Source: an uncultured Gemmatimonadales bacterium (GTDB lineage: Bacteria > Gemmatimonadota > Gemmatimonadetes > Longimicrobiales > RSA9). From it: a stretch of 64,000 nucleotides of DNA. This document shows positions 1-44,823 of this stretch, piece after piece. The notes under the pieces are model-generated. The model did not search any database. It was not told the origin of the DNA and saw only the letters and a program-made list of their open reading frames with translations. The translations under genes and the position numbers were made by a program. The stretch is taken from NCBI GenBank assembly GCA_963708135.1, contig OY970192.1, positions 832,001-896,000 on the forward strand, read 5' to 3'. Every line of letters begins with the position of its first letter. Position 1 is the first letter of the stretch.

Positions 1-1073
1 AACCACACCGCGTGCCGGATCCGCTCCCCCAGGCTCTCCGCTGCCGGTGTCGAGGCCAGGGCATAGGCGTTGGCGTCCATCCCCTGCGGAAACTGGATGC
101 GATAACACCCGATTCCGTCCGCCGCGAGTTGCTCGGCCAGTGCGGCCGCCGCGCTCTCGCCCGCCGCGTCCCGGTCGTAGGCGATCAGCACGCGCTCGGT
201 GCCGTATCTGCGAAACGCCTCGTGATGCGCCGCCGTGAAGCCGCTCACCCCGTAGCTCGCCGTCACGTTCCGGTAGCCCGCGCACCAGAAGCTCAGCGCA
301 TCGAGCAGCGCCTCGCACAGGATGACCTCCTTCGACTCCGCCAGCGCCGCTTCGTTCCACACCCCCGCGTGCGCCCCCGGCAGGTAGAGGTGCAGCGGCG
401 TGCCTGCCCGCAGTCCCTCCGTGATCTTGCGACCGTACATCTCCCGCACCGCTTCATCGGCATCGATCACCGGCACCACCAGCGAGCCGGTGAAATGCTC
501 GTGTCCGCTCGGTCGCAGGATCCCCAGCCGCTGCAGCCGACTCCGGATCTCCGCTCCCGCCTTGAGCGCCTTCTTCGGCAGGTGGTAGCCCAGCGTCCGG
601 TTGGCGAAGCCCAGTTGGAAGCGGTCAATATCCGCCACCTGGGCGAGGCCCCGCTTCTCCAGGTAGGCGATGGCTTCCGGACTCTCCTTCAGCGTCTCGT
701 GGTAGTAGCCCACCACCTGCTGCAGCAGCGCCTGGTCATCGACGTCCGGCTCCAGCAGCGGCGGCAGTGCTCTGGCCTTTGCACTCGCGGCGGGCGCACC
801 CCGCAGGATCTCCACCGCGTGCCGGAAGCTCACCCCCTCGCGCCGCATCACCCAGTCGATCACGCTCCCGCCCGCCTGGCACGCGCCCAGGCAGTGCCAC
901 AGCCCTTTCGCCGGGCTCACCACCAGACTCGGCTCGTGGTCCTCGTGGAACGGACACAGCCCCAGCAGGTCCGCGCCGTGCCGCCGCAGCTTCACTCCGC
1001 TCCCCTCCACCAGCCCCACCAGGTCCGCCTCGCGCTTGAGCCGCTCCAACTCCTCCCTCTGGATCCGGGCCAT
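1..1073 (-). CDS. CHC2 zinc-finger/TOPRIM DNA primase-like protein of a mobile element (runs off window edge)
   Basis: Manual translation from ATG 1073 (GGAGGAGG/AGGAG upstream): MARIQREELERLKREADLV...GLCPFHEDHEPSLVV...WHCLGACQAGGSVIDWV...ILCEALLDALSFW...LIAYDRDAAG; not in ORF track because it is open at the edge. Confidence 0.85.
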   Translation of the reverse strand, partial: MARIQREELERLKREADLVGLVEGSGVKLRRHGADLLGLCPFHEDHEPSLVVSPAKGLWHCLGACQAGGSVIDWVMRREGVSFRHAVEILRGAPAASAKARALPPLLEPDVDDQALLQQVVGYYHETLKESPEAIAYLEKRGLAQVADIDRFQLGFANRTLGYHLPKKALKAGAEIRSRLQRLGILRPSGHEHFTGSLVVPVIDADEAVREMYGRKITEGLRAGTPLHLYLPGAHAGVWNEAALAESKEVILCEALLDALSFWCAGYRNVTASYGVSGFTAAHHEAFRRYGTERVLIAYDRDAAGESAAAALAEQLAADGIGCYRIQFPQGMDANAYALASTPAAESLGERIRHAVW

Positions 1074-1176
1074 GGCTCCTGCCTCCTCCGGAAATCCCGT
1101 CAATGGACCCTTGCGTCTCTTGTGGTATGGACTAATATGTCATCATCGCACCGGACGCAAGAGAGGAGGCCTTATC

Positions 1177-1563
1177 ATGATCGACCACGTGAAGCTCTAT
1201 CCCGAGGTCGATATGGAGCAGTTCCCGGAGACCCTCAAGCTGCTGAGGGAAAGCAGGGGTCTGACGCAGGCCCGGCTTGCCGAGTTGATCGAGGCCAGTC
1301 CGCGCGTCTACAATCGGTGGGAAACGGGCGCGGCGGCCCCGCGGCTAGACACTCTCGTGAAGATCGCTGACATCCTCAACGTCAGCCTGGACGAGCTCGT
1401 CGGGCGCACCGAGCCCAGTTCCGAGGTCGAGATCCAGAATCCCAGGCTCCACGCCCTCTACCGCCACATCGATCGGCTCTCCGACGAGGACCAGCAGGCC
1501 GTCATCATCCTTCTCGACTCTCTCGTCAAGCGGTCCCAGATGGACCAGATCCTCGCTTCCTGA
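1177..1563 (+). CDS. XRE-family HTH transcriptional regulator, divergent from primase
   Basis: LKLLRESRGLTQARLAELIEASPRVYNRWETG...P Cro/C1 HTH; GAGGAGG before ATG 1177 (alternative start 1213). Confidence 0.85.
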   Translation: MIDHVKLYPEVDMEQFPETLKLLRESRGLTQARLAELIEASPRVYNRWETGAAAPRLDTLVKIADILNVSLDELVGRTEPSSEVEIQNPRLHALYRHIDRLSDEDQQAVIILLDSLVKRSQMDQILAS

Positions 1564-1741
1564 CCAGCCACCGCCGCCCACGGGAACGAGCAGCTAAAGG
1601 AAGAAGCCCGGCCATCGCTGGTCGGGCTCTCCGGCTTCATGCCTGTGTCTCGGCACCGTTGCGGGCTCCGCTCCGGCGTGCCGGCCTCGCATTATGCGCC
1701 CTCGCCCTCGGCGCGCCTCCGCTCCGGGCGCTTCGCGCCTC

Positions 1742-1760
1742 TACATAACCGGGTTATGCA
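1742..1760. other. dif-like palindrome, candidate tyrosine-recombinase site
   Basis: TA-CATAACC-G-GGTTATG-CA; CATAA...TTATG arms as in dif but with a 5-bp rather than 6-bp centre. Confidence 0.4.
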
Positions 1761-1806
1761 AACCCGCTGCGGCAGATCTCGTTGACAAAACGCCATATTC
1801 ATTTGC

Positions 1807-2256
1807 TCATTCAGAGTTCAGCGGAGACTGACTGGCAACTTGCGTCGATTCCGAGAATTCCCATGCCTTAAAAGTAATCTCGATCCACGAGTAGCCCTCG
1901 CGGCGAAATGACGCTTTGTAGCTGGGCCCGGTCAGCCGTGAACGAACCAAGGCTCCAGCATCTTCGACTCGAAGGCAAGCGATTTCGCCGAAGCCCCAAC
2001 CAAGTGATGCCTCCTTCTGCATCACTGAGTCAGAGAGTTCGTTGATAACGTGCAGTTCACTCACGCCGCAGAAGCGGATTGACACAATACGCCGGTCAGC
2101 GTATTGGGTCCGAATCGTTCCATCCTCCTGCCACACGAAGTCAATGTCGATGCTGAGGGACGCGCCCCAGTTCAGCCACTGGACGCCGACAACAACACAC
2201 TCCTCGAAATCGCGGTACGCGTGAAGCTCTGCTCTCAATACAGGCAATCCGCTCAT
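1807..2256 (-). CDS. Putative immunity protein for toxin tip 1
   Basis: 149 aa, ATGA overlap with stop of upstream Rhs-CT ORF, visibly lower GC. Confidence 0.7.
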   Translation of the reverse strand: MSGLPVLRAELHAYRDFEECVVVGVQWLNWGASLSIDIDFVWQEDGTIRTQYADRRIVSIRFCGVSELHVINELSDSVMQKEASLGWGFGEIACLRVEDAGALVRSRLTGPSYKASFRREGYSWIEITFKAWEFSESTQVASQSPLNSE

Positions 2257-4205
2257 CGATTCCAGATGTTAAGATGCGTGGTCGCGTTGGGACCAGGGTT
2301 ACCCAGCGCGTCGAGATAGTTGCGAGCTGCATTCATGATGCGCAGTTGCCAACCATTTTCCCGCCGCATTAAGCGAACTTCTTCGCCCGTTCCATTCGTG
2401 AAAAGGTAGCCACTCTTATTCTCCGTCAGTCCCATCACAAACCCGTTCTCTTTCAGAATTGCGCGAATTCCAATGATCGACTCATCCGCAAGTCCGCCTC
2501 CCTCCGAGAACAGCGCGCGTAGCCCGGCGCTCGCTCCCCGTAGCCCCCGCCCGACGGCACCACCACCCACCGTGAATGCCGCCATTGCGAAGCCGCGTCC
2601 GGCGTGACCACTCCCGATATCGAAGCCAGCATCAAACGCTGCGGTGATCGGATTGACATCGTTGATCGCATTCAACCCAGCTGCGGCATTGAGCACCACG
2701 CCGCCCAGGCCACCGCCACGCTGCGCTCCCCAATTTGCCGCTTTCTGCAAGCAATCTTCAATCGGCGGGCACAATCCGAACGGGTCGGTATAAGACGCGG
2801 GGTTGTTGCCCGCATACGCATAGAGGTTAAGCCCGCCGGCAAATCCGATGGGGTCTTCCTGCGTGAACCTCCCCAATCTGGCGTCGTAGTAGCGGTTGCG
2901 GAAGAAGGCTCCGGTCTCCTGGTTCGAGTCGCCGTTGCGGGCGGGGGCGAAGCTGTAGCTTTCGCGGATGGCACCCGACTGCGAGCCCCAGGTACTCCAC
3001 GCCGGGAGCTCGTTTCCGTTCGTGTCCGTGATGCAGTTCTCGCCCTGCGGGCCCTGGAAGCTGAACAGTCGTTCGCGATGCGTGATGAAATATGCGCGCT
3101 TGTCGTTCAGGCTGCCGAGGGGACACGCAGCGTTGCCGTACATCATCAGCGGGTCGTCGAGCCCCGGCCCGTCCACGAACTCGACCGTCGAGTGCTCGAT
3201 CACGTTCTGACCATCGTAGAAGGTCTCCGCGCCGGAGTGGGCATAAGCGCCGCGGATCCGCCGGCCCAGGCCGTCGTAGCGGAAGAAGGCGGTATCGGGG
3301 TGAGTGCCGGAGAGCTGGCCGGCGGCGCTGTAGTAGCGGTGCCAGGTGTAGGCGGTCCCGGCGTAGGTGCCCTGCTCGAGCGTCTCGTTGCCGTTCGCGT
3401 CGTAGCTGAAGTCGACGCTCTCCGGACCGGAGACGCCGCTGTAGTAGCGGGTCCGGCGGGTCACCTCGTTCGAGAGGCCGTCGAGCTGGAAGAGCACGCT
3501 GTCGGCGCACAGGCTGCCGCGCACGCACAGGTACTCTTTCACGCGGTTGCCGGCCGCGTCGTAGACCATGCTGTCGGTCGAGGACGTCCCTCCAGGGTGG
3601 CTCTGACTCGTATAGCGGATGCGCCCGCTCCCGTCGTAGGCCCAGCGGTCCACCCAGGTCGCGTTATTGGTCTCGTTGCCGCGGTTGACGACCGAATCAG
3701 GCCGCCCAGCGGCGTCGTAGGCGAAGCTCAGGTCCACGGCGGTGTCACCGCTCGTGGCGTTGACGGAGATGACGCGCGCGATCTGCCCGTCTTTCGTGTA
3801 ACCGTAGCTCGTTTTCGTGGTGTTGGGCAGCCAGACCGTGTCGCGCCGCCCGAGCGCGTCGTAGTGGAACGAGATCATCTCGCCAGCGGGCGTCTGGATC
3901 TGGGAGACGAGCCCGCCCGGCCCGAGGGTGTAGGTGTACGTCCCCTTCGGCGTGCTCAGCGTATGGCGGCCCGCCCACTGATAGGCCGAGCTGTAGGTGC
4001 GCTGCGTGCCGGACCACTTGTGGAGCTGCGTGCTTGAGGCGAGGGTGCCTTCCTTGTTGAAGACCCGCGTGACCTGCGAGCTGTCCTCATCGAGCATGGT
4101 GACGTTACCGGCCGCGTCATACTGGAGGTTGATCGTCGTGCCGACCACGCCGAGGACGCCATTCTGGTAGGTGGATGAGAGGACGCGCTGCTTCGGGCGA
4201 TTCAC
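2253..4205 (-). CDS. 5'-truncated (orphan) Rhs core with toxin tip 1
   Basis: YD repeats, RYYD...GRFTQEDPIG...NPASYTDPFGL core end, unique C-terminus; no signal peptide; copy of the main Rhs. Confidence 0.8.
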   Translation of the reverse strand: MNRPKQRVLSSTYQNGVLGVVGTTINLQYDAAGNVTMLDEDSSQVTRVFNKEGTLASSTQLHKWSGTQRTYSSAYQWAGRHTLSTPKGTYTYTLGPGGLVSQIQTPAGEMISFHYDALGRRDTVWLPNTTKTSYGYTKDGQIARVISVNATSGDTAVDLSFAYDAAGRPDSVVNRGNETNNATWVDRWAYDGSGRIRYTSQSHPGGTSSTDSMVYDAAGNRVKEYLCVRGSLCADSVLFQLDGLSNEVTRRTRYYSGVSGPESVDFSYDANGNETLEQGTYAGTAYTWHRYYSAAGQLSGTHPDTAFFRYDGLGRRIRGAYAHSGAETFYDGQNVIEHSTVEFVDGPGLDDPLMMYGNAACPLGSLNDKRAYFITHRERLFSFQGPQGENCITDTNGNELPAWSTWGSQSGAIRESYSFAPARNGDSNQETGAFFRNRYYDARLGRFTQEDPIGFAGGLNLYAYAGNNPASYTDPFGLCPPIEDCLQKAANWGAQRGGGLGGVVLNAAAGLNAINDVNPITAAFDAGFDIGSGHAGRGFAMAAFTVGGGAVGRGLRGASAGLRALFSEGGGLADESIIGIRAILKENGFVMGLTENKSGYLFTNGTGEEVRLMRRENGWQLRIMNAARNYLDALGNPGPNATTHLNIWNR

Positions 4206-4207
4206 TC
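2844..4207. repeat. 1,364-bp near-identical copy of 9207-10570
   Basis: Constant offset 6363; only difference noticed is 3556 G vs 9919 T (YDAAG vs YDEAG). Confidence 0.9.
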
Positions 4208-4697
4208 AGGACGAGGTACGTCTCCTCCTCGAGCTGCTGGCGATGTACGACCGGCAGATCGCGGCCGTGGAGGAAGCGATGGTCTTCGCCCTCCGTCGGG
4301 CCCCGGAGGCGAAGGCGCTGATGTCGATCCCCAAGCTCGGCGCGGTCACCGCGGCTGTCTTCCTGGGTTCGATCGGCGATCCGAGGGCGTACGAGTCGAG
4401 CCGGCAGGCGCTCCGCGTGGGTGGCCTCTCATTGGTCGTGCAGGAGAGCGGGCTGCTCCGCGGCAAGCCGCGCCTCAGCAAGCGGGGCCGGCCCGAGATG
4501 CGACGGCAGGCGTACATGTTCGCGGCCGCAGCGTGATGAAGGGTGGGCTCTACCGGGAGGCGTTCGACCGCGCCCTGGCCGAGAACCCGCAGAAGCCGAA
4601 GAAGAAGATCCTGGTGGCCCTGGCGCGGCGCGCCACGAAGCTCATGTTCAGCGTCGCGCGGGACCGGAGGCTGTACACGCCGGATGGCCCGAAGTAG
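4208..4697 (+). pseudogene. IS110-family transposase C-terminal fragment, frameshifted near 4527-4536
   Basis: SIPKLGAVTAAVFLGSIGDPRAYESSRQ...ESG...LSKRGRPEMRRQAYMFA, then in another frame SVMKGGLYREAFDRALAENPQKPKKKILVALARRATKLMF...PK*. Confidence 0.9.
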
Positions 4698-4975
4698 GAT
4701 TCCGGCAGGTGAAAGAGCGGAAGGGCTGCGGCATCCTGCCGAGCCCTCCCGCGAGCACCAGACGCAGGCTGGAGAGTGGAGCCGGCAATCCATCGAAGGA
4801 GTTGCAGAAGCGCTCGGCGCCGCAGCTCGCTTCCGAATGCTGGAACGCTCCCTCCGGCCCAGAGCCCGCTCAAGTCTCCGAGGAAGGCGTGTCGAGGACC
4901 CTCCGGGGTGCCTCCAAGGAACTGAGGGTATCGAGCTACGCGAGCCCGAGCGGTCTGGGTGCGATTTGACAACTC
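4698..4975 (+). ncRNA. Bridge-RNA-like structured noncoding region, copy A
   Basis: Directly 3' of IS110 gene; blocks conserved with 7653-7949; closing stem GCACCAGAC(4755)/GTCTGGGTGC(4953); two internal-loop hairpins. Confidence 0.65.
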
Positions 4976-5028
4976 CGTATACTACCTGCCGAGACCCCGA
5001 CCGGGCGGTCGCGGCACCAGTGGCGCGT

Positions 5029-5215
5029 GCCCGGCGTGGACCCGCCATGTCCCTTGAGGCGGCGTTGCCGGCCTCCGATGGTGGACTCGGTCACGTCGGG
5101 CAGCGCGCTCTTTCACGTCAAACACCCACCGACAGCGCTGCCCGGCATGGGTCCGACAATCCGGTTGAGGCGCGTCCTGCGGCCTCCGATACCGGACTCG
5201 ATCATGCCGGGCAGC
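5029..5215 (+). repeat. Two 73-nt hairpin units with variable internal loops (A1 5029-5101, A2 5140-5212)
   Basis: Scaffold GCCCGGCRYGG..CCGA-N10-GAGG(hairpin)CCTC-N7-GGACTCGRTCRYGYCGGGC. Confidence 0.85.
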
Positions 5216-5220
5216 TTCGG

Positions 5221-5622
5221 CTACCGCCTGACCGGTTCACCGTCGATGCTTACGCCGCGGGCGATGACGACGAGCGACGCAGCATCATCGAAGTATAGGC
5301 GGTAGCGCGTGATTGGAGGGCGCGGCACTGTCTCGTGCCAACCCACTGAAGTGTTCCAACGAGCCTCCAGCTCTTGAATGTCGGCGGCAGCTGTCTCAGC
5401 CACGATGTAGTCCGGTCCGATGACGTCTTCTTCTACGCAGACGGCGCCCGCCGTGTATTCGACCCGAAGCACGTCGGAGAAGGTGACTTCGGTCCATTTC
5501 GTCTCTCCTTCTTCAGTAGTGTCGTACCGAACCGTTGCGAAGCCTTCGGACATGTTCACGACCGGACCAGCCAGCGTGTGACTGGTGCGGCGTGGCAGAT
5601 CAATCAAGGTCGTCATGTTCAC
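5221..5622 (-). CDS. Putative immunity protein for toxin tip 2
   Basis: 133 aa, GTGA overlap with tip 2 stop; lower GC. Confidence 0.7.
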   Translation of the reverse strand: MNMTTLIDLPRRTSHTLAGPVVNMSEGFATVRYDTTEEGETKWTEVTFSDVLRVEYTAGAVCVEEDVIGPDYIVAETAAADIQELEARWNTSVGWHETVPRPPITRYRLYFDDAASLVVIARGVSIDGEPVRR

Positions 5623-6124
5623 CTGATTACAGGGGTGAACGTCGGAGATGCAGAGCCCGCCATCTCAGCGAGGCGTTCCGTTAGCTGCCTCTCAAACATT
5701 GCATTGCCCGTAACATTGTTGATTACGGTCGGCCTCATGCCCGCGATCCTCAACGCCATCAGCGAGCGGTTGTTCATCGTGTACGACACGCCATCTCGAA
5801 CAACGACGTTTAGGGGCAGCTGACTTGGTGTGATCGCACCGCTTCTCAGGCCGGCCGCCACATCAGAGATCGACTGACCTGCAAACTCGCCGTGACGGAA
5901 GCTCGACGAAATACCCCTCTGGGCGAACTGTACCGCTCCCTCGTCAGCGGCTGCGGTGGCGACGCTGCGTCCGATCAGTGCTCGGATCCCGCCTGCGATG
6001 CCGCCTGCGAGAAACGCTACCGGATCTAGCAGACCAGGGCCACGGAGACCTGGTTCGTGTCCTGGACACCCCGTATGCCACTCAGTCTCCGGAGGGCACA
6101 ATCCGAAGGGATCGGTATAGGAGG
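5619..6124 (-). pseudogene. Orphan Rhs toxin tip 2, ParB/Srx-like toxin domain
   Basis: Begins SYTDPFGLCPP with no Rhs core; FAQRGISSSF...L..G.I.P.QLPL.V...G..Y..NNRSL.AL..AG resembles Tox-ParB-like domains. Confidence 0.75.
6112..6124. repeat. 13-bp direct repeat TCGGTATAGGAGG, left junction (partner 9148-9160)
   Basis: Exact match at both ends of the 3,036-bp unit. Confidence 0.85.
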
Positions 6125-6440
6125 GACGCCTCTAACCCAATGCGCCCCGATTCGGCCTCCGATCAGCCTACCTCCGACGCCACCTCCCGCCGTCTCAATC
6201 AGCCCTCCTGACACCCTCCCGAACAGCGAAACCCTTCACCATACCACCCGCAGCTCCACCGCCTCAGGCGGGGTCGACTGCCTTCCATTCACCCGGATTC
6301 CGCGCCCGATCCTGGCGGTGATACGGTTCCGGGTTCCGCCTCCGTCCCGGCGGCCCCGGCTCAGAGCGCCATAGAGCACGATTCCGCCATCGGTGCGGCC
6401 CACGGTACCGCTCTGGTCCACTTCAACCAGGAGCGAGACC

Positions 6441-7652
6441 ATGAGCCGTTTCGAGAAGCGCCGCCGGGCCCAGCGCGCCGCCGCCGTCGCCGGAGTGGAC
6501 GCGGGCAAGCGGAAGCACGCGATCGCGGTCCGGCCGCGCGGCGGCGAGGATAGCACGCCGCTCGAGTTCCAGACGACGCGAGCCGGCTTCGAGACCGCGG
6601 TCCGCGCGATCCTCGAGAACGCTCCGGGCACACGACCCGAGGACGTGCTGGTCGGCATTGAGTTCGCCGGCAACTACGGCTTCACCTTCGCCCACTTCCT
6701 GCGCGACCGCGGCTTCCAGGTCGTGAACGTGCTCGGCGCCCACAGCAAGCGCTGGAAGGAGGTGGTCCACAACCAGGGGCTGAAGAGCGACCCCAAGGAC
6801 GCGCTCACGATCACCGACATGGTGGCGCAGGGCGCCTTCGTCGGCTTCCCGTTCCTCGAGCAGGTCTACGCCGACCTGCGCTACCTGGTCAGCATGCGCG
6901 AGCGGCTGACGAAGCTCCGGAGCGCGACGATCGCGCGGCTGAAGGACGTGCTCCAGGTCGTCTGGCCGGAGTTCGAGCGGCGCTTCAAGAACTTCAGCAA
7001 GAAGACGCCGATCGCGATCCTGGAGGCGTTCCCCGGGCCGGATGCGTTCCTGCGCGCACCGAAGCGGCGCGTGCTGAAGGTGATCCGGGAGGCGAGCCGG
7101 GGTCATCTGGGCGAGGCCGCCTACGAGCACCTGCGGTGCGCGGCCGAGGACACCGTGGCGCTCCCCGGCGCGCAGGGCGTGCTTGCGCAGGAGGTCGGCC
7201 TCCAGCTCGATCTGCTCGCGTCCTACGAGCGCCAGATCGCCGAGGTCGAGCGCCTCATGGCCGAGCGGCTGGTGGACGCGCCGGAGGCGCCCTCGCTCCT
7301 CTCGGTGCCGAAGCTCGGCGCCGTGACGGCCGCCGTGTTCCTCGGCTCGATCGGCGACCCGCGGGCCTACGACTCGAGCCGGCAGGCGCTCAAGGTCGGC
7401 GGCCTCGGGCTCGTCGTGAGCGAGAGCGGCGCCCAGCGCGGCCGGCCCGAGCTCCGGCGCCAGATGTACATGTTCGCGGTGCGGAGCGTGAGCCGGGGCG
7501 GCCTGTTCCGGGCGGAATACGAGCGGGCGCTCGAGCGCAATCCGAACACGCCGAAGAAGAAGGTGCTGGTCGCGCTCGCGCGGAAGGCGACGCGGCTCAT
7601 GTTCGCGCTCGCGAAGGAGCGGCGGCTGTACACGATGGAACCGCCGCGGTAG
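6441..7652 (+). CDS. IS110-family DEDD transposase/recombinase
   Basis: GVDAGK, GIEFAG, KSDPKDA (DEDD), SVPKLG HhH, ESG serine loop, KKKVLVALARK; AGGAG before ATG 6441. Confidence 0.93.
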   Translation: MSRFEKRRRAQRAAAVAGVDAGKRKHAIAVRPRGGEDSTPLEFQTTRAGFETAVRAILENAPGTRPEDVLVGIEFAGNYGFTFAHFLRDRGFQVVNVLGAHSKRWKEVVHNQGLKSDPKDALTITDMVAQGAFVGFPFLEQVYADLRYLVSMRERLTKLRSATIARLKDVLQVVWPEFERRFKNFSKKTPIAILEAFPGPDAFLRAPKRRVLKVIREASRGHLGEAAYEHLRCAAEDTVALPGAQGVLAQEVGLQLDLLASYERQIAEVERLMAERLVDAPEAPSLLSVPKLGAVTAAVFLGSIGDPRAYDSSRQALKVGGLGLVVSESGAQRGRPELRRQMYMFAVRSVSRGGLFRAEYERALERNPNTPKKKVLVALARKATRLMFALAKERRLYTMEPPR

Positions 7653-7949
7653 GTTGGGGGAATCAACACCATGGGAGGGCCGGCTGGCGCGGTGCGCGCC
7701 GGCCCTCCTACAGTGCACCAGACGCAGGCCGGGGGATGGAGCAGAAGAATCCATCGAAGGGGCCGTCTCGCACGAACGTGAGGCCTGCTTCCCAAGGTCG
7801 GACCCGCTCCCCCTGACCCAGAGTTCGCCACAGTCTCCGAGGAAGGCGTGTCGAGGGCCACGCGCGGCAGACGCCGCCACGGTGCCTCCGAGGACTTGAG
7901 GGTATCGAGCTACGCGATCTCGAGTGGTCTGGGTGCGATTTGACAACTC
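7653..7949 (+). ncRNA. Bridge-RNA-like structured noncoding region, copy B
   Basis: Closing stem GCACCAGAC(7715)/GTCTGGGTGC(7927); conserved AATCCATCGAAGG and AGTCTCCGAGGAAGGCGTGTCGAGG with variable-length hairpins. Confidence 0.65.
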
Positions 7950-8006
7950 AGCGCTTGCCTTCGCCGTCGCGGCGTCGAGCCGGCCGCGACGGAACGGGTG
8001 GCGTGT

Positions 8007-8293
8007 GCCCGGCGCGGATCCGACATCCAGCCTGAGGCGGCCCAGCCGGTCTCCCATGATGGACCTGATCGCGTCGGGTACGCTCTTCCTCATGGGCATC
8101 GGCGCCGGCATGGATCCGAGAACCCGGACGAGGCGCGTTCTGCGGCCTCCCATGTGGGACTCGGTCGTGCCGGGCCGCACCTCCCCGCCGGGCTGGCCAA
8201 CGGGGAGGTGAGCGGAACGGGGCCGGTGTGGATCCGATAATCCGGTCGAGGGGTCACGGACCGCCTCCAACATCGGACTCGATCGCACCGGCC
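8007..8293 (+). repeat. Three 73-nt hairpin units (B1 8007-8079, B2 8103-8175, B3 8221-8293)
   Basis: Same scaffold as A1/A2 with compensatory stem changes and distinct loops. Confidence 0.85.
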
Positions 8294-8670
8294 TATTTCT
8301 TTCGCCGCATCGATTCCTCTGTTTGGCTACAGACCGCGGTCATCGCTGGCCCCATGTACGACCGGGCAGTTTTCATCCAGTCCGAATTGTCGGTTAGCCT
8401 CTCGCAAACGCTGAATGCGGCAATCTCCTGCACCTTCGGATCCGGATGGGCGGCCAGTATTTCGAGGGAGTCGAAGACTCTCCGAATCTCGGCCCCGTCA
8501 TTCCGCTCGATCGCGGCGATAAGATGCGGGGTGAGCAGATCACCATAGATGATGTGAGGGCCGGGACGTTCAGTGCCCCACCATTCCAGTTCTTTTTCGT
8601 ACTTTTCCCTCAACTCTGGTATGCTGGTGATCAAGTGATCCACAACAGTCTCGTATTTGATCTCTGTCAT
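8293..8670 (-). CDS. Putative immunity protein for toxin tip 3
   Basis: 125 aa, TGATG coupling to Rhs stop, lower GC. Confidence 0.75.
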   Translation of the reverse strand: MTEIKYETVVDHLITSIPELREKYEKELEWWGTERPGPHIIYGDLLTPHLIAAIERNDGAEIRRVFDSLEILAAHPDPKVQEIAAFSVCERLTDNSDWMKTARSYMGPAMTAVCSQTEESMRRKK

Positions 8671-11600
8671 CAGTGCCCTCGAAGTGCATTCTGGAGGTCC
8701 GTAAGAACTCGCTGGGCGGTTGTTCGGTCGGCAGCGCTGAGCTCCTCCTGCTGAAGAATTCGTTGAAGCTGACGGGCACGCTGTTGGCCCTTGAGAAGAT
8801 GCGACCGGCCTCCCACGAGTTCACCGGTCCGTAGCTCCTCCCTGATTGCTCCAGCGGTCCCGCCAGGTAGCTTGTCGCCCGCACGGAACAGTTGCTCGAT
8901 GGCGCCTTGGAGGCGTGCGTTAGCGGCTGCCGGGATCTCATTCGCGAAGGCCCCGTACTGACGAATACGATTTGCATTTCGCAGTCCCTCAACAAGACCC
9001 CCTCCCACTGCTCCGAGGGCGGCGTCTGTGATTCCCTGGGAGAGTGTATAGTCCCCCCCGAGCGCTTTCGTGATAAGGTAACCCTCGGCGACACCTACAA
9101 CGGCACCTGCGGCGATTTCAAAGCAGATCGGGCAGAGTCCAAACGGGTCGGTATAGGAGGCCGGATTATCCCCGTTGTAGCTGTAGAGGTTGAGCCCGCC
9201 CGCAAGTCCGATGGGGTCTTCCTGCGTGAACCTCCCCAATCTGGCGTCGTAGTAGCGGTTGCGGAAGAAGGCTCCGGTCTCCTGGTTCGAGTCGCCGTTG
9301 CGGGCGGGGGCGAAGCTGTAGCTTTCGCGGATGGCACCCGACTGCGAGCCCCAGGTACTCCACGCCGGGAGCTCGTTTCCGTTCGTGTCCGTGATGCAGT
9401 TCTCGCCCTGCGGGCCCTGGAAGCTGAACAGTCGTTCGCGATGCGTGATGAAATATGCGCGCTTGTCGTTCAGGCTGCCGAGGGGACACGCAGCGTTGCC
9501 GTACATCATCAGCGGGTCGTCGAGCCCCGGCCCGTCCACGAACTCGACCGTCGAGTGCTCGATCACGTTCTGACCATCGTAGAAGGTCTCCGCGCCGGAG
9601 TGGGCATAAGCGCCGCGGATCCGCCGGCCCAGGCCGTCGTAGCGGAAGAAGGCGGTATCGGGGTGAGTGCCGGAGAGCTGGCCGGCGGCGCTGTAGTAGC
9701 GGTGCCAGGTGTAGGCGGTCCCGGCGTAGGTGCCCTGCTCGAGCGTCTCGTTGCCGTTCGCGTCGTAGCTGAAGTCGACGCTCTCCGGACCGGAGACGCC
9801 GCTGTAGTAGCGGGTCCGGCGGGTCACCTCGTTCGAGAGGCCGTCGAGCTGGAAGAGCACGCTGTCGGCGCACAGGCTGCCGCGCACGCACAGGTACTCT
9901 TTCACGCGGTTGCCGGCCTCGTCGTAGACCATGCTGTCGGTCGAGGACGTCCCTCCAGGGTGGCTCTGACTCGTATAGCGGATGCGCCCGCTCCCGTCGT
10001 AGGCCCAGCGGTCCACCCAGGTCGCGTTATTGGTCTCGTTGCCGCGGTTGACGACCGAATCAGGCCGCCCAGCGGCGTCGTAGGCGAAGCTCAGGTCCAC
10101 GGCGGTGTCACCGCTCGTGGCGTTGACGGAGATGACGCGCGCGATCTGCCCGTCTTTCGTGTAACCGTAGCTCGTTTTCGTGGTGTTGGGCAGCCAGACC
10201 GTGTCGCGCCGCCCGAGCGCGTCGTAGTGGAACGAGATCATCTCGCCAGCGGGCGTCTGGATCTGGGAGACGAGCCCGCCCGGCCCGAGGGTGTAGGTGT
10301 ACGTCCCCTTCGGCGTGCTCAGCGTATGGCGGCCCGCCCACTGATAGGCCGAGCTGTAGGTGCGCTGCGTGCCGGACCACTTGTGGAGCTGCGTGCTTGA
10401 GGCGAGGGTGCCTTCCTTGTTGAAGACCCGCGTGACCTGCGAGCTGTCCTCATCGAGCATGGTGACGTTACCGGCCGCGTCATACTGGAGGTTGATCGTC
10501 GTGCCGACCACGCCGAGGACGCCATTCTGGTAGGTGGATGAGAGGACGCGCTGCTTCGGGCGATTCACTCCGTCGTACTGGATCGCGACGGTGCTGCTGT
10601 CGCGGTTCCTGCGGAGCGTCAGGTTGCCGGCGAGGTCGTAGGCATGGAACTCCGTTGCTCCCATCCCATCGATCATCGCGGTATCCTCGCCCAGCGCGTT
10701 GTAGTGCCAGCTGCGGGAAAAGGTCATGCGCGGGTCGACAGCCGTTGTCCGGTCGCCATCCGCGTCGTACGTGAAGTGGCTCGCACGTCTGTAGACGCCG
10801 TCGTAGTGATCCACCTCGGTGAGATTCCCCAAGGCGTCATGCACGTAGGTCAAACTGTCGCCAACGGGATTGGTCACCCGCCGAACCTGGCCGTTGGCGT
10901 CGTACGCGTAGCTCGTGGTGTGACCCTCGGGCGTGGTGCTCGAGAGCAGGTTGCCAGCATTGGAATCGTCGTTGGCGAGGATGGTGCTGAGATCCTGCAC
11001 GGTATCGCCGTAGACAGGTACCGACTGCTCGGTCACGCTCGCGACCTGGCCGCGCGAGTTGTAGGTGAAGCTGGTCTCGTGACCACGCGGGTCGATGACA
11101 TTGTCGAGCGTCCCGTCCGTGGAGCTGTAGTTGAAGGTGGTCGTGTCTCGGGTCGCGCCCGAGCGCGGTGCGATGACCTTCCACGGTTTGTCGGGTGCGG
11201 CGGTCGAGTAGAGGTAGACTGTGGAATCCGCGCCCGCGCTGGATGTGAGGTCCGCGGCGTTCCGAACGCGGCCGACGACGTCGTACGCAGTGGTGGTCTG
11301 GCGGCCGTTCGGCCAATCGACCTCCTTCGGCAGCAGCGGGAAGTTGGAGTCGTACGTCAGCACGGTGGTGTTGCCCACGGCGTCGATGATCCTCGTCGGT
11401 GCCCCGAAGCGGTCGAGGTAGAACTTCGTGATCTGAATGGTGTGGGTGCGCGGTCCCCGCACCTCGAAGTCCGCGCTTGCCGCGGCGTAGGTGTCGTTCA
11501 GCCCGGTCGCGGTCGTTGCGAGGCCGAGAGTCTGGAGAGGAGTGAACGTTGTCACGGGTGTGCCGGCGCTGACCGTCGGCAGCGTGTCGGCCGCGAGCAG

Positions 11601-13796
11601 CGCGGTCTCGCCCGTATACGAGTACTTCGTCGCATGGCCAAGGCGTGAGGTCCAGCGCGTCAGCAGGTGAGCGGCGTAGGCAAGCACGATCGCGGAGTCG
11701 GGGCGGTCCGGAAGGTAGAAGTCGGTCAGATCGCCCGAGCCGTTGACGGTGATGTTCATGGCGCGCGAAGCAGGGTCGGTGACCGCGCTCAGCTTCGCGT
11801 TCGGGCTGCCGTAGGCGAAGGTGTAGACCCTGCTCTGGTCCCAGGGTGCGATGCGGATCTGGGAGACCCCACTGCCCGCCCCGCCCGTGTAGCTGTACTG
11901 CACCTTGTTCGAAACGCGATCCTGGACCCAGGTCTCCTGGCCGGCCGTGTTGAAGTAGAGCTGGGTGCCGTCGAGCAGCCGCCGGCGGTAATGGGTCGTC
12001 GAGCTCCCGCTCGGATCGACCGCTGTCTCGTAGAAGATGGTGTCGCGGTGCGCACCGACGGGGGCGAGGTAGGCGCTGCCGCCGATGGCGTCGTAGACGG
12101 CCGTGCTGCCGTCCCCGTCGACGAGCAGGACCGCGGTTCCGGATCGCTGGTTCGGGTAGAGCTCTTCGACACCCGCGATGCCCCAGCCGGCCCCGTAAGG
12201 ACCCGCGGAGCGATTCACGACGATCAGGTCGCCGCTCGCCGCCGTCTCGCAGGTGGCACAGATCGTGTCGCTGTAGACATCGGCCACCGTCAACGTGAAG
12301 GTGTGCAGGCCCGTCGTGACGCCGGCGGCCGCCGCGTCGAACCCGACCGCGATCCGACGGGCGTTGCCGCCAGGGGCAATGCGAAGGTCGTTGAACCAAC
12401 GCACGGCCCGCGTGACGCCATCGACGACGAGGGTGGCCTTAAGGCTGTCGGGCACGCGGATGCCCAGGTCGAGCGCGACATTCGCGAGCACGATCGGATA
12501 CGGCTTTGCCGTTCCGCTCGTGTAGAGCAGCGTGAGGGCGCGGTCGCGGTTCATGGTCCGGTAGGCCGGCATCCCCTGTGCGACGAGCAGCTCACCGCAT
12601 TGCGAGGCGCCGGCCGGTCCCGCGCCGACCGTGACGCACGAGGAGCGGGGCATGAGCGAACCGGGGTTGATCGCGGCGTTGACCTCGATCGGGCCCTCGG
12701 GGGCCGTGGGGTTCCCCACCGTGACGTTGTAGGAGCCGCTGTCGCTGCCGCCGGTCCCGGTGGCGGTGAGCGTGATGGTCCCGTAGCCGGCCGAGGCGGC
12801 CGAGAACCTGACGGTCACGGAGCTCGCGCCGTTCGCTCCCACCGTTACGGATGGATCGACCGAACAGTAGGTCACCTGACCGGTGAACCCGCACGCGAGC
12901 GTGTAGGTCAGAGGGGAGCCGTTCGGATTCGAGACGGTGAAGAACGCGCCATTGCCAGACGTGTTGGCGTTTACCGTCAGGCTGCCACTGTCTGGCGTCA
13001 CGGATGGAGGCAGGGTGCCCGATGGATTCACCGTGAACGTCACGGCCACGCTCTGCGGCGAGTTGTCGGCGTTCGCATCGGAGACGCTCACGCTGCCGGT
13101 GTAGGTTCCGGTGGCGAGCGTGCCGGTATGGGCCGTGACGCTGACGCTGCCGTTGCCGGTTCCAGATCCCGGGCTCACGCTCAACCAGGATGCTCCCGGT
13201 GAAGCCGTCCAGTCGAGCGTGCCGCCGCCCGAGTTGGTGACGCTCACGCTCTGTGGTGCCGGATCCGCTCCGCCCTGCGACGCGCTGAACGAGAGGCTCG
13301 TCGGACTCAGGACGATGTGCGGCGTCGTCGTCTGGAGATTGACATAGCAGTTCGTGTATTCGGCAGGTGGCGGGCTGTTCGGCAGGCTCGGCGCTGGCGA
13401 CGCGCCCTGGTTGGCGACGCTGAGCGTGACGTAGCCGTTGCTCGGGCTGGACCCGACGGCGTAGGTGATCGTCACGTCGGCGGCGCTGCCCGCCGCGATC
13501 GTGATCGAGCTCTGTACGGAGCAGGACGTAACGGGCGCCACGAACGAGCATCCGAGGTCGTACGTCGTCGTGGGGTTGTTCTTGTTGTCGAGGTGGAAGA
13601 TGGCGCCGTTTCCGCTGCTGTTGGGCGCGACCGTCATGGGCGAGTTCGTCGCCGAGACGGTCGGGAGTCCCGTCCCCGTCTCGGGGCCACCAACCGCGTG
13701 CGCTGGCTGGCCGACGAGCGCCGCGATGGCGCCGAGGGTGAGGATGCGAGCTGCGGAACGAGCGGCAGCTCGAATGGAAGGCCGCGTTCTGGGCAT
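8670..13796 (-). CDS. Full-length Rhs/YD-repeat polymorphic toxin with signal peptide and BACON/Ig-like N-terminal domains
   Basis: N-terminal basic+hydrophobic segment ending AHA; SPTSLSF...WLSVSP BACON-like; YD repeats; QEDPIG...DNPASYTDPFGL; variable C-terminal tip. Confidence 0.92.
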   Translation of the reverse strand: MPRTRPSIRAAARSAARILTLGAIAALVGQPAHAVGGPETGTGLPTVSATNSPMTVAPNSSGNGAIFHLDNKNNPTTTYDLGCSFVAPVTSCSVQSSITIAAGSAADVTITYAVGSSPSNGYVTLSVANQGASPAPSLPNSPPPAEYTNCYVNLQTTTPHIVLSPTSLSFSASQGGADPAPQSVSVTNSGGGTLDWTASPGASWLSVSPGSGTGNGSVSVTAHTGTLATGTYTGSVSVSDANADNSPQSVAVTFTVNPSGTLPPSVTPDSGSLTVNANTSGNGAFFTVSNPNGSPLTYTLACGFTGQVTYCSVDPSVTVGANGASSVTVRFSAASAGYGTITLTATGTGGSDSGSYNVTVGNPTAPEGPIEVNAAINPGSLMPRSSCVTVGAGPAGASQCGELLVAQGMPAYRTMNRDRALTLLYTSGTAKPYPIVLANVALDLGIRVPDSLKATLVVDGVTRAVRWFNDLRIAPGGNARRIAVGFDAAAAGVTTGLHTFTLTVADVYSDTICATCETAASGDLIVVNRSAGPYGAGWGIAGVEELYPNQRSGTAVLLVDGDGSTAVYDAIGGSAYLAPVGAHRDTIFYETAVDPSGSSTTHYRRRLLDGTQLYFNTAGQETWVQDRVSNKVQYSYTGGAGSGVSQIRIAPWDQSRVYTFAYGSPNAKLSAVTDPASRAMNITVNGSGDLTDFYLPDRPDSAIVLAYAAHLLTRWTSRLGHATKYSYTGETALLAADTLPTVSAGTPVTTFTPLQTLGLATTATGLNDTYAAASADFEVRGPRTHTIQITKFYLDRFGAPTRIIDAVGNTTVLTYDSNFPLLPKEVDWPNGRQTTTAYDVVGRVRNAADLTSSAGADSTVYLYSTAAPDKPWKVIAPRSGATRDTTTFNYSSTDGTLDNVIDPRGHETSFTYNSRGQVASVTEQSVPVYGDTVQDLSTILANDDSNAGNLLSSTTPEGHTTSYAYDANGQVRRVTNPVGDSLTYVHDALGNLTEVDHYDGVYRRASHFTYDADGDRTTAVDPRMTFSRSWHYNALGEDTAMIDGMGATEFHAYDLAGNLTLRRNRDSSTVAIQYDGVNRPKQRVLSSTYQNGVLGVVGTTINLQYDAAGNVTMLDEDSSQVTRVFNKEGTLASSTQLHKWSGTQRTYSSAYQWAGRHTLSTPKGTYTYTLGPGGLVSQIQTPAGEMISFHYDALGRRDTVWLPNTTKTSYGYTKDGQIARVISVNATSGDTAVDLSFAYDAAGRPDSVVNRGNETNNATWVDRWAYDGSGRIRYTSQSHPGGTSSTDSMVYDEAGNRVKEYLCVRGSLCADSVLFQLDGLSNEVTRRTRYYSGVSGPESVDFSYDANGNETLEQGTYAGTAYTWHRYYSAAGQLSGTHPDTAFFRYDGLGRRIRGAYAHSGAETFYDGQNVIEHSTVEFVDGPGLDDPLMMYGNAACPLGSLNDKRAYFITHRERLFSFQGPQGENCITDTNGNELPAWSTWGSQSGAIRESYSFAPARNGDSNQETGAFFRNRYYDARLGRFTQEDPIGLAGGLNLYSYNGDNPASYTDPFGLCPICFEIAAGAVVGVAEGYLITKALGGDYTLSQGITDAALGAVGGGLVEGLRNANRIRQYGAFANEIPAAANARLQGAIEQLFRAGDKLPGGTAGAIREELRTGELVGGRSHLLKGQQRARQLQRILQQEELSAADRTTAQRVLTDLQNALRGH
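9148..9160. repeat. 13-bp direct repeat, right junction inside rhs (A-S-Y-T-D codons)
   Basis: TCGGTATAGGAGG identical to 6112-6124. Confidence 0.85.
9207..10570. repeat. Source copy of the 1,364-bp Rhs duplication
   Basis: Matches 2844-4207. Confidence 0.9.
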
Positions 13797-13864
13797 GATG
13801 GCGCTCCCTGCTCGAGGGAATCCCGGAGCCCCGATGCCGGTGCTCCGTGGAGTGGGGCACCATC

Positions 13865-14758
13865 CTATCTATCGCGTTCGGAGAGGCCGTCGAGGTTCCA
13901 ACGTCCCGATCGGAGGTTCCAACGTACCCGTTCACGGGCAGGATCGCCGGTGGTGGCCGGCCGGGGCGCGGCGGGACGGGCATGGAGCTCCAGCCAGCGG
14001 TCAGCCAGCGCCCGCGGGTCCAGGCCGGCCCGGATCTCGGACACGGACAGCTGCAGCCGGCGGCGCAGCGATTTGCCGAGCGCCGCCGCGTCCGAGAAGC
14101 CGGCCAGGAAGGCCGCGTCCCCGGTTCTCGCGCCACGAGCGATCGAGTTGGCCGCCGGAAGCAGCCGAAACAGGAACTGGCACTGCTCCACGGTCGGGAG
14201 ACCGGCGTCGCGAACCTGGCGGAAGAGGGCGTTCCGACTGACGTGGAGCCGCGCGGCCAGCTCGGCCGGGCTCCACCGTGCGGCGTCGCTTTCCGCCAGC
14301 AGCCGGAGGAACTGGAGAACCACCACGTCCCGGATGGCCAGGGCACGGATGACGCGGCTCGCGACGATTTCCGGCGCGCCGCGGAGGAGGTCACGAATGT
14401 CGCCGCCCAGCTCGGGTCCCGGGAAGAGGAGGCGGACGCCGAACCGGGCGAGCGGGTAGACGCGCCGGACCATCTCCGGCGTCAGGTCGCCGAGGTAGGC
14501 CGCCGTCGGCACGAGCAGGCCCCGTCGGTGGAGGACGGCGATCGTGCGGCGGCCCGGGTCATCGAGCAGCACGGCCGCAAAGACGAACGCGGCCGGCGGA
14601 GCGCGGGACGTGAGGGTCCCGACCACCGCGCCCCAGCTGCCGGCGGATGCGATCGTGGCCGCCCGTCCCGCCGCTTCGTCCACGTCGCGGAACGCAGTCC
14701 CGCCGCTGATGGCCAGGACGAGGATCTCGAGAGGGTGGCGCCGCGCGTTTCCGCCCAT
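13865..14758 (-). CDS. AraC-family transcriptional regulator
   Basis: C-terminal ELAARLHVSRNALFRQ...AAFLAGFSDAAALGKSLRR double HTH; start uncertain. Confidence 0.75.
   Translation of the reverse strand: MGGNARRHPLEILVLAISGGTAFRDVDEAAGRAATIASAGSWGAVVGTLTSRAPPAAFVFAAVLLDDPGRRTIAVLHRRGLLVPTAAYLGDLTPEMVRRVYPLARFGVRLLFPGPELGGDIRDLLRGAPEIVASRVIRALAIRDVVVLQFLRLLAESDAARWSPAELAARLHVSRNALFRQVRDAGLPTVEQCQFLFRLLPAANSIARGARTGDAAFLAGFSDAAALGKSLRRRLQLSVSEIRAGLDPRALADRWLELHARPAAPRPATTGDPARERVRWNLRSGRWNLDGLSERDR
13892..13925. promoter_or_regulatory. 13-bp direct repeat at 21-bp period upstream of rhs, candidate AraC-type operator
   Basis: GAGGTTCCAACGT at 13892 and 13913. Confidence 0.5.
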
Positions 14759-15072
14759 GTCATTCCGGCGGTGTGGCGGGAGAGTGTTCGATGCCGACCG
14801 GCGCCCATCGGGCTCGTGGGGAGAGTCGCCGTTGTCTGGCTGGAAGGAGTGGCGAGGGAGTGCGAGCCGGATCGTCGCTGAGCTGCCGGAGGAGCGACAA
14901 GCCAATGGTATGTTGCGTCCAGCCGCCGTCTGACGCAGCCCCGGTTCCGTGACAGAGTTGTCAGAATCGAGTCAAGCTCTGGTTGGCACACGGCTCTGTG
15001 CACAGAACTGCACGGACATTTTCCGCGGGGCCGCCCCTGGCCCGTCCGGCGCCGGCGCCTTACCGTTTGTCC

Positions 15073-44805: not shown

Positions 44806-44823
44806 CTACGGGAGCGCCCGCCA

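Follow-up and report, generated by a model that had tools for sequence, protein, structure and literature searches.

Candidate RNA-guided IS110-family elements with Rhs tip cargo form ordered stacks at a fixed position of an rhs gene

Two modules of the same composition lie head to tail at the 3' end of an rhs gene in the 64,000-nt stretch of DNA analysed here (the window). Which process builds such a stack, and does each insertion restore the target that it used? A preliminary description had assumed that it does, and had read the modules as a chronological series. In our analysis, the site-specific serial order and orientation stood up, whereas the regeneration of the same target did not. 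We consider it highly probable that the modules represent a clade of IS110 bridge recombinases that carries an Rhs tip and an immunity gene as cargo and would be guided by RNA to one fixed rhs codon position. This reading draws on architecture, junction position, orientation, and guide-flank covariation, all taken from sequence.

Organization of the locus

Modules A and B (window 4208..9160) both display the order originally claimed for them on the plus strand, i.e. tnp, ncRNA, array, immunity gene, and tip. Each is an IS110-family bridge-recombinase element of ~3 kb that comprises a left end, the recombinase, a 3' RNA, two to three hairpins, an immunity gene, and an Rhs tip; the right end of each element is Rhs coding sequence. 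The following features were assigned.

1807..2256, minus strand: putative immunity gene 1 (position)
2253..4207, minus strand: copied 3' end of the Rhs core (1.4 kb) carrying tip 1, joined to A where A is broken; not IS110 cargo (repeat comparison)
4208..4697, plus strand: what is left of recombinase A (residues about 249-410), with a frameshift near 4525 and without the left end (alignment)
4698..4972, plus strand: 3' non-coding RNA of A with donor-binding loop; left guide and right 4-mer same as in B (sequence comparison)
5031..5212, plus strand: array A, two units; unit 1 with non-Rhs guide 5044-5053, unit 2 with Rhs guide 5155-5164 (sequence)
5221..5622, minus strand: putative immunity gene 2, 133 aa, open, cargo of A, no family match (ORF, position)
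5619..6124, minus strand: tip 2, cargo of A, displaced by B; first 13 nt same as in tip 3 (ORF, junction)
6125..9160, plus strand: element B, 3036 bp, bounded by its left end and by a right end within Rhs coding sequence that precedes the D of DPFG by 11 nt (junctions)
6125..6440, plus strand: left end of B; the donor loop reads its opening bases as left donor site (guide comparison)
6441..7652, plus strand: recombinase B, IS110-family DEDD, 403 aa (Pfam, NCBIfam, alignment)
7653..7946, plus strand: conserved 3' non-coding RNA of B with putative donor-binding loop (sequence comparison)
about 7842-7850 and 7898-7901, plus strand: putative left and right guides of the B donor loop, the right one complementary to the start of tip 3
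8009..8293, plus strand: array B, three stem / internal-loop / hairpin units, putative target-binding loops (sequence); unit 1 with non-Rhs guide, unit 2 (guide 8118-8127) and unit 3 (guide 8236-8245) reading Rhs x-N-P-x-x-Y sites
8293..8670, minus strand: putative immunity gene 3, 125 aa, DUF7674, cargo of B (role suggested by position)
8670..9160, minus strand: tip 3, cargo of B, in-frame fusion to the Rhs core; no Pfam or NCBIfam family (ORF, junction)
9161..9170, minus strand: the half of the target site (left) that lies in the Rhs core, spanning codons D-N-P and the initial base of the codon after them, surviving every insertion (junction comparison)
8670..13796, minus strand: full-length Rhs/YD-repeat gene, 1708 aa, the target gene, with tip 3 as its current C-terminal tip (ORF; Pfam RHS_repeat, BACON_2; TIGR03696)

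The frame of the target gene is open for 1573 aa upstream of DPxG, and the whole Rhs pattern is present, i.e. a YD-repeat core ending in P-x-x-x-x-D-P-x-G, a variable tip, and a small downstream gene. Tips 2 and 3 indeed begin with the same letters: CCTCCTATACCGA is found at 6112-6124 and at 9148-9160, in each case on the minus strand. A genome search returned a third minus-strand copy just left of the window and a single plus-strand copy far off. Since 30 of 1770 pairs of distinct cargo tips have their first 13 nt in common, the 13-mer of tips 2 and 3 can be attributed to codon-constrained Rhs sequence.

Immunity gene 1 is followed by an HTH gene (1177-1563) and then by a primase / tyrosine-recombinase element running out of the window. 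On the left, another three-module stack directly adjoins the window. An Rfam scan of window positions 1-16000 gave no match at E<=1, and a tRNA scan of the island flanks found none in L001-L004. The island also contains repeats (an 8.1-kb duplication at 98% and a 1.4-kb repeat at 98%) and several deletion junctions.

Long near-identical repeats of this kind, and the fact that no single contig among those compared spans the whole stretch, are what could be said for the tandem layout being an assembly artefact. We give this hardly any credence: a contig of sequencing run X1, which is possibly the source data, covers 3376-6052 and bridges the junction 4207/4208 between the Rhs core copy and broken A, an X2 contig (6090-7486) crosses the left junction of a B-like element, and the layout recurs in many independent loci.

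Neither element is intact. A lacks its left end and residues 1-248, carries the frameshift near 4525, and looks truncated by a deletion. Its identity to B is 80% over the aligned part, so the two are different elements and not aged copies. In recombinase B, a 24-nt in-frame deletion near 7434 removes eight near-invariant residues of the Tnp domain just past the serine, a gap unique among 26 aligned proteins; the catalytic D/E/D/D and the Tnp serine are retained. Judged from this deletion, B is itself damaged. Run X2 contains a B-like element in which these 24 nt are not missing and other DNA stands where the cargo would lie. B had been taken as the newest element and A as an older, decayed one; the core-adjacent element must indeed be the latest arrival, but B is damaged and A is a different element.

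The recombinase family and its insertion site

The recombinases matched PF01548 (DEDD RuvC-like) and PF02371 (Transposase_20), and those of B and of a further element, C, exceeded the NCBIfam cut-off for IS110 (NF033542). The recombinase gene of C lies at G000:C1:810816-812048 and has an intact reading frame. Across 26 family proteins aligned to IS621, residues D20, E74, D117, D120, and S329 were invariant. The only solved structures among the relatives found were IS621 and ISCro4. The Nop-domain model NF052498 gave a weak recombinase match (25.8 bits vs a cut-off of 100).

The survey set consisted of 101 non-redundant relatives, excluding three G032 matches at 29% identity. By eye, L016 has no Rhs junction. 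A quick tree included family members only and is descriptive. Scanning a genome collection with one protein yielded one locus, and of 401 genomes sampled from the phylum, 11 gave a match.

Among these relatives, the left end lay 11 nt before the D of DPxG in 58 of 61 Rhs junctions. The 79 non-redundant elements with enough upstream DNA comprised 53 with an Rhs DPxG junction, 5 with a degenerate Rhs site, 17 at another site, and 4 without a call. The word list for left ends and the geometry of the units came from visual reading of the very loci surveyed; by hand, the left-end call of L042 and the junction of L097 were discarded, and L033 counts as degenerate Rhs though it looks off-target. In an independent motif count, the Rhs motif stood opposite the tnp strand in 49/79 elements and on the same strand in none (random windows: 9/20000).

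The order and orientation expected of a stack at one site were borne out. All adjacent pairs within 6 kb (30/30, duplicates included) were on the same strand, with 20 distinct head-to-tail joins. Longer stacks also exist, with three elements in several loci as well as in the one just left of the window.

Pfam families were matched by 9/53 tips and 9/53 second ORFs (including Colicin_E5, Ntox24, PT-TG, Imm32, and Imm53), and Ntox10 was paired with Imm27 in G000. The other 44/53 tips, tips 2 and 3 among them, matched no Pfam family, and the ESM Atlas placed tips 2 and 3 in unnamed clusters only. Most tips are best called putative toxins.

Guides that match junctions

The donor loop, parsed in 47 of the 101 elements (none from the 34-39% identity group), appears to read the start of the element's own toxin tip. 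Its right 4-mer matched the own tip start exactly in 33/38 elements, against a mean of 5.4 and a maximum of 14 on permutation; when each 70%-identity cluster was represented by a single element, the values were 16.3/18 vs 2.2. The left guide matched in 42/42 elements at positions -6 to -3 and in 21/42 at the terminal base.

The comparison bears on whether the IS110 part carries the tips at all. According to a model that we regard as very improbable, a cargo-free IS110 inserts at a hot spot within Rhs and duplicates 13 bp of the target, and homologous recombination exchanges the tips independently, as in the C-terminal displacement model. A 13-nt direct repeat does flank B, core fragments of varied length are present here, displacement by homologous recombination via a circle has been proposed (PMC2935791), and orphan-tip fusion is reported for Salmonella (PMC3967940; both as far as the available text goes). 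However, only 1 of 40 elements has flanks that agree over the first 6 nt, displaced tips show no core homology past 11 nt before D, elements at non-Rhs sites also bear a tip and second ORF, and the donor loop covaries with the tip start. These flank, homology, cargo, and donor-loop data already contradict the model.

The hairpins behave as multiple target-binding loops, by the match of their letters to real flanks: one for the Rhs junction and others for real non-Rhs landing sites. In an alignment of 38 units, two-sided changes were seen in 16/20 pairs and both 13-14 nt loops were open. Each target loop is predicted computationally to hold two guides complementary to opposite target strands. 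At non-Rhs sites, the own array scored 15.9/18 compared with 13.0 for permuted arrays (max 14.75 in 20000, n=12); at core-adjacent Rhs sites, it scored 14.8 vs 13.2 (max 14.2, n=22), and kinship among elements means that the permutation p-values overstate the significance. The right guides fitted the displaced tip better than the own tip in 28/38 cases (equal 5, worse 5), and the guide of element C reached 15/16 at the present Rhs junction, the top score of the genome. In 61/64 units, the base past the right guide matched the terminal base of the element, so that this guide base follows the donor, the exact strand cuts being invisible in sequence. A core dinucleotide common to donor and target was not seen at B, where the three bases before the crossover differ between the left end and the Rhs core.

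The arrays varied in size and order. Zero units were counted in 7/53 elements, and the last unit was of the Rhs type in only 26/46; the regex search found 3 units in its strict form and 55 when loosened. B's own guides matched its displaced tip in only 4/6 positions, and the right guide of array A unit 2 agreed 6/6 with the first bases of tip 6, which belongs to the stack left of the window. When the private guides of G000 were searched in G000, no site exceeded 14/16. A tRNA was considered as target of the first units; at a maximum of 14/16 for these guides, support was lacking. Subterminal inverted repeats seemed visible by eye but were not borne out by the permuted-partner test (54 elements, score 10.2 vs 10.3, p=0.68; 9.3 when shuffled).

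Alternatively, the hairpins could be DNA-level sites or terminators (REP-like, attC-like, or of the rhs operon) with no guide role, targeting being left to the protein or the main RNA. The units form strong hairpins at a point of convergence between two transcription units, and IS1111 members are described at attC and REP sites (PMC11187229, in the part available). We hold this to be improbable, as the loop letters and not the stems predicted real flanks, unrelated non-Rhs sites included, and in L112 guide and junction had changed in step.

What an insertion leaves behind

The idea that insertion recreates the site held for the reading frame, the DPxG motif, and the left half-site. It failed for the right half, which equals the old one in 1 of 40 elements, namely B. 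The own array fitted the destroyed site better than the created one in 16 of 22 core-adjacent elements (equal 2), and the new site outscored the old in 4/22. Tip start and displaced tip did not differ beyond chance (2.78 vs 3.00 of 6, p=0.10, not significant). Judging by these guide fits, the new junction usually makes a target for a different element. Stacked neighbours had a median identity of 41.5%, and 0/20 were at least 90% identical; on this sequence comparison, stacks consist of different elements and not of repeats of one.

Old cargo is retained as had been claimed: 23/24 old tips and 24/24 following ORFs were open, the ORF pick being permissive. The proposed increase of decay with distance from rhs was weak: a hand count gave broken ORFs in 0/14 core-adjacent vs 5/17 outer elements (p=0.036, or p=0.085 with L097 added).

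This weak trend is one argument for a further reading, in which the guides are real but stack order is no record of arrival, since recombination of arrays or RNAs, action in trans, and deletions reshuffle it. The RNA regions of B and B' agree at 100%, but their cargo differs and their left ends agree at only 83%. A guide of A, and not one of B', fits the tip that B' displaced, and the island holds the 8.1-kb duplication and several deletion junctions. On the other side, the 28/38 preference of right guides for displaced tips is as direct arrival order predicts. As a full account, reshuffling seems unlikely to us; it modifies the favoured explanation and does not replace it.

Proposed mechanism

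In the mechanism that we favour, the 3' RNA would be expressed and folded to form one donor-binding loop, with a left guide for the left end of the element and a right guide for the first bases of its own tip. The target-binding loops would follow as an array: one, usually the last, would read the Rhs N/D-P-x-x-Y/F junction and the remaining ones private non-Rhs landing sites. Strand exchange, presumably from a circular intermediate, would place the crossover between the first and second bases of the fourth codon ahead of D, fusing the new tip in frame, and would push the old tip, its immunity gene, and older elements downstream. The new junction, i.e. the kept core half-site plus the newcomer's own tip start, would usually be a poorer target for the newcomer yet a target for other family members, and stacks of different elements in arrival order would result. 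Contigs of three sets listed no circle or empty-site joint, though contigs cannot exclude either, and X2 and X3 look like one data set.

More tentatively, we regard it as possible that this amounts to naturally multiplexed, RNA-programmed toxin switching, in which an IS110 community re-arms one rhs gene by turns, avoids self-insertion because the own tip start is mismatched to the own guide, parks at private sites where rhs is absent, and may bring stored tips back into use. The donor loops of A and of B both fit the left junction of B perfectly as a donor site, and the C target loop fits the present core junction at 15/16, so a pair of A and C RNAs could excise B and restore tip 2 in frame.

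Comparison with known systems

Integrons build a chronological array at one site, and Tn7/CAST elements use two classes of target site; both features are matched here. These elements differ from both in having their own recombinase per module, RNA targeting, and an in-frame protein fusion as product. The integron hallmark (one tyrosine integrase, attI, and attC cassettes) is absent, each module having a DEDD recombinase and RNA. Of the integron-style archive proposed earlier, the ordered stack was found, and the recall step was not observed.

IS621 and ISCro4 are similar in their DEDD plus Tnp recombinase and in two-guide loops pairing to opposite strands (PMC11208160; PMC13626964; 10.1101/2025.05.14.653916), and the base after the right target guide resembles the handshake pairing of IS621 (PMC13626964). 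Their split loops function in trans, which makes separate target loops plausible here. As described in the available text, they have one target and one donor loop and a shared core dinucleotide, with no natural cargo mentioned; the elements studied here combine a single donor loop with as many as three target loops, show no common core at the junctions of B, carry a toxin-immunity pair as cargo, and end on the right in coding sequence. IS1111 seekRNA elements (ISEc11, ISKpn4, ISPa11) likewise have a long non-coding region downstream of tnp with guides for the top and then the bottom strand (PMC11187229, available part). Compared with these, our elements have several guides, natural cargo, a protein-coding target, and no detected subterminal inverted repeats. 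TIGR-Tas systems share a stem-loop array with two short guides per unit for opposite DNA strands, beside a Nop-domain protein (PMC12045711), for which the NF052498 match here was below cut-off. The present elements differ from them in having a full IS110 recombinase, a predicted donor loop, and short arrays; the available text of that paper presents IS110 RNAs as a single two-stem unit.

A literature search, with subscription journals outside its scope, found no description of this system and no paper combining IS110, bridge RNA, and Rhs. The available main text of preprint 10.64898/2026.10.21.760802 contains neither 'Rhs' nor 'toxin' and its section 2.4 no multi-loop arrays; the parts available of PMC13604230 and 10.1101/2025.10.25.684509 have nothing on arrays.

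The strings of displaced tips downstream of an intact rhs, formed by sequential insertion, resemble the known Rhs C-terminal displacement and orphan modules (PMC2935791; PMC3967940; 10.1101/2025.05.08.652813). A published model has displacement proceed by homologous recombination via a circle that it does not explain (PMC2935791), and in the available accounts such models need long core homology and host recombination. Here, in contrast, each tip would have a dedicated RNA-guided recombinase that needs about 16 nt. For one lineage, rhs tip displacement would thereby gain a named enzyme, RNA guides, and a base-exact crossover, all directly testable. The predicted bridge RNA layout, in which one donor loop serves several target loops, the donor guide is tuned to passenger DNA, no shared core is evident, and the product is an in-frame protein fusion, is absent from the literature compared. 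Natural insertions of this kind would be read-outs of dozens of guides, useful for mismatch rules and multiplexed bridge editing.

Two modules at the rhs gene

The two modules of identical order noted in the preliminary description (recombinase, non-coding region, hairpin array, small gene, Rhs tip) were confirmed in the window, as was the shared 13-mer with which the displaced tip 2 and the current tip 3 open. They correspond to two IS110-family elements, A and B:

module B, 6125 to 9160, right end inside the coding sequence of the 1708-aa Rhs gene
module A, abrupt start at 4208, where it joins a 1.4-kb Rhs core copy

The join between A and the Rhs core is crossed by one contig of sequencing run X1, which may be the source data. 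A and B share 80% identity across their aligned part. A 24-nt in-frame deletion directly past the Tnp serine of the B recombinase was found in no other of 26 aligned proteins; the deleted 24 nt are present in a B-like contig of run X2. By eye, the Rhs N-terminus (window 13700-13796) resembles a signal peptide and then BACON/Ig-like repeats, so that Rhs may be exported other than by a type VI system. Upstream of rhs is a gene for an AraC-like HTH protein (window 13865-14905); a tRNA-Gln gene at window 44735-44806 is unrelated to the IS110/Rhs finding.

Insertion sites and cargo of related elements

Relatives were sought in a genome collection, 401 genomes of the phylum (11 matched), and metagenomes (at least 77 loci); all those carrying a name belong to Gemmatimonadota. 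With the island of this genome, L005, and L031-L124 as survey input, the 126 recombinase matches among those listed were grouped at 97% nucleotide identity into 101 clusters. These sequences show directly where the elements end, what cargo they carry, where crossover falls, how they are oriented, and that guides agree with flanks. The 79 elements whose 5′ end was present with 470 nt or more of upstream sequence joined an Rhs DPxG motif (53), a degenerate DPxG (5), or another site (17), with no call for four. Of 61 Rhs junctions, 58 place the left end 11 nt ahead of the D codon and three place it 10 nt ahead. Left-end words were chosen by eye from the surveyed loci themselves; a word-independent count placed the DPxG motif on the opposite strand in 49/79 and on the same strand in 0/79 (random windows, 9/20000). 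The left junctions of L047, L052, L078, and L081 are one base short (10-nt spacing), possibly a trace of imprecise repair after exchange.

For the 50 elements with enough DNA downstream, the following junction was formed by the left end of another element (20), by the Rhs core (18), or by another site (11), and was absent in one. Cargo tips were strikingly uniform across loci (143-175 aa in 58 of 60), with a second ORF behind them, and cargo G+C was below recombinase G+C in 60/60. Pfam matches were obtained for 9/53 tips and 9/53 second ORFs, several to toxin or immunity families. Several private (non-Rhs) landing sites, in the flanks of L044, L045, L057, L059, L063, and L102, resemble recurring palindromic or repeated host elements common to several loci. 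In the left flanks of L113, L123, and L124, private sites end in GTTAGGC-like words, presumably similar to integron attC ends.

Predicted guides in the array and donor loop in the main RNA

Judged from their sequence, the array hairpins behave as target guides. Aligned, 38 units share one fold, in which an outer stem leads through a pair of open loops (13-14 nt each) to an inner hairpin; changes on both sides occur in 16 of its 20 pairs. A search pattern fixing only the stems retrieved 55 units, many of which, read as left loop plus reverse complement of the right loop, spell the Rhs codons D/G-N/D-P-x-x-Y/F; this arrangement of left and right guide is that of IS621 (PMC11208160, partial text). 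Non-Rhs DNA bounds 12 cargo-bearing elements on both sides, and these flanks matched the element's own array at 15.9/18, versus 13.0 for permuted arrays (maximum 14.75 in 20000; n = 12). Core-adjacent elements (n = 22) scored 14.8 versus 13.2 (maximum 14.2), and shuffled arrays about 12.2-12.4. Close relatives occupy both site classes (L037 and L039; L044, L045, and L051). Detection was lossy: at least two units were found in 25/53 elements, of which only two had an Rhs-type first unit. In 61/64 units, the base just after the right guide is complementary to the last base of the element, with AC next in 54/64, which fits post-exchange handshake pairing (PMC13626964, partial text).

The main RNA holds a putative donor loop built like the array units, one side matching the left end and the other the start of the element's own tip. 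It was parsed in 47/101 elements, none of them in the distant subgroup. Its left side matched left-end positions -6 to -3 in 42/42. Its right side equaled the first four bases of the own tip in 33/38 (permuted mean 5.4), spread over 12 different words, and matched the displaced tip in only 2/27. When each 70%-identity cluster was represented once, the match was 16.3/18 versus 2.2 when permuted.

Stacking and the regenerated site

Chronological stacking had been proposed, each insertion recreating its target. Random order or orientation in related loci was not seen: adjacent pairs within 6 kb lay on one strand in 30/30 cases (duplicates counted). The 20 distinct head-to-tail joins had a median protein identity of 41.5%, none reaching 90%. 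A site is indeed regenerated, but rarely the identical one: the first six bases of new and displaced tip agree in 1/40 elements, namely B. On average, new and displaced tip starts differed no more than by chance (p = 0.10). The own array fitted the old site better than the new one in 16/22 elements (equal in 2, lower in 4), and Rhs guides matched the displaced tip at 4.16/6 and the own tip at 2.76/6 (n = 38 of 40); B's own guides match the tip it displaced at only 4/6. The guide of C, an element left of the window, scores 15/16 at the junction that B created; no site in the genome scores higher, and only the other Rhs junction of the same sequence equals it.

Decay with distance from rhs was weak. 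Broken recombinase ORFs, counted by hand with remnant D added and B scored as open despite its deletion, numbered 0/14 in core-adjacent and 5/17 in outer elements (p = 0.036), or 1/15 and 6/19 with L097 included (p = 0.085); most outer elements retain an open ORF. Truncated outer recombinases repeatedly start at residues 239-286 (window 4208; L031:1747; L077:2592; L097:4273 and 7569); deletions may thus follow the same route again and again. In L051, L052, L078, L109, and L111, two subfamilies alternate within stacks, one with TAGCCT-start tips before TCAYGT-start tips, the other reversed. Overall, the original observation stands and its interpretation is partly supported; the underlying system is stranger than proposed.

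The island left of the window

The region G000:C1:808-832 kb holds a second stack of three modules (B′, C, and remnant D), along with a truncated array and a primase/tyrosine-recombinase element present twice. One tip in this region is Ntox10, with Imm27 behind it. The RNA regions of B and B′ are 100% identical; their cargo differs. In the S-K-R-G motif of B′, the near-invariant serine is replaced by proline (L002:4170-4185), so B′ may be impaired as well. Its left end is interrupted by a Mutator-family (IS256-like) element (G000:C1:813559-815010), of which a 99.7% identical copy (2787494-2788946) lies near a second Rhs locus (2.78-2.79 Mb). Also near that locus is an internally deleted B-like element (G000:C1:2795105-2795634) retaining part of the left end, two tnp ends, and the RNA start.

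The primase/tyrosine-recombinase element (window 1-1563 and G000:C1:818000-833100, L002) encodes a CHC2/Toprim primase, a tyrosine recombinase, and an HTH protein, and carries its own tip and immunity gene. Its insertion point appears to lie in the same rhs gene, at a T-Q-E-D-P motif some 39 codons upstream of where the IS110 elements enter; short palindromes flank it and a small gene pair, hicAB-like by eye. A similar join was seen in L097. An 8.1-kb direct duplication of 98% identity (G000:C1:817914-826017 and 828096-836199) includes this element together with tip 1 and a portion of the Rhs core. A literature search found no paper on such an element in rhs.

Proposed mechanism and comparison with known systems

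The main mechanism is very probably insertion of tip cargo at a fixed rhs codon by RNA-guided IS110 elements. The 3′ RNA would be transcribed in the tnp direction, and excision or copying would yield a circle linking the left end to the tip start. One donor-loop dimer would pair with any single, separate target-loop dimer; split loops function in trans in IS622 (bioRxiv 10.1101/2025.05.14.653916, partial text). Exchange past the first base of a codon would leave the incoming tip fused in frame. With private guides, an element could settle where rhs is absent. Cargo swaps such as B versus B′ could stem from recombination between similar arrays of a stack. B's left junction is a full donor site for the donor loops of A and B; recall of tip 2 through it is speculation.

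In how they work, the elements resemble an IS621-type bridge system, and their 3′ RNA is IS1111-like (PMC11187229, partial text). They were not filed as IS1111 because the test for its typical subterminal repeats was negative. Our literature search, with most subscription journals outside it, found no paper on IS110 elements carrying or targeting Rhs tips, or on IS110 elements with several target loops. Integrons and CAST offer further points of comparison. A model from 2009 had Rhs tips displaced one after another, driven by homologous recombination (PMC2935791, partial text). The hairpin array recalls the stem-loop arrays of TIGR systems, in an account that describes IS110 RNAs as a single two-stem unit (PMC12045711, partial text).
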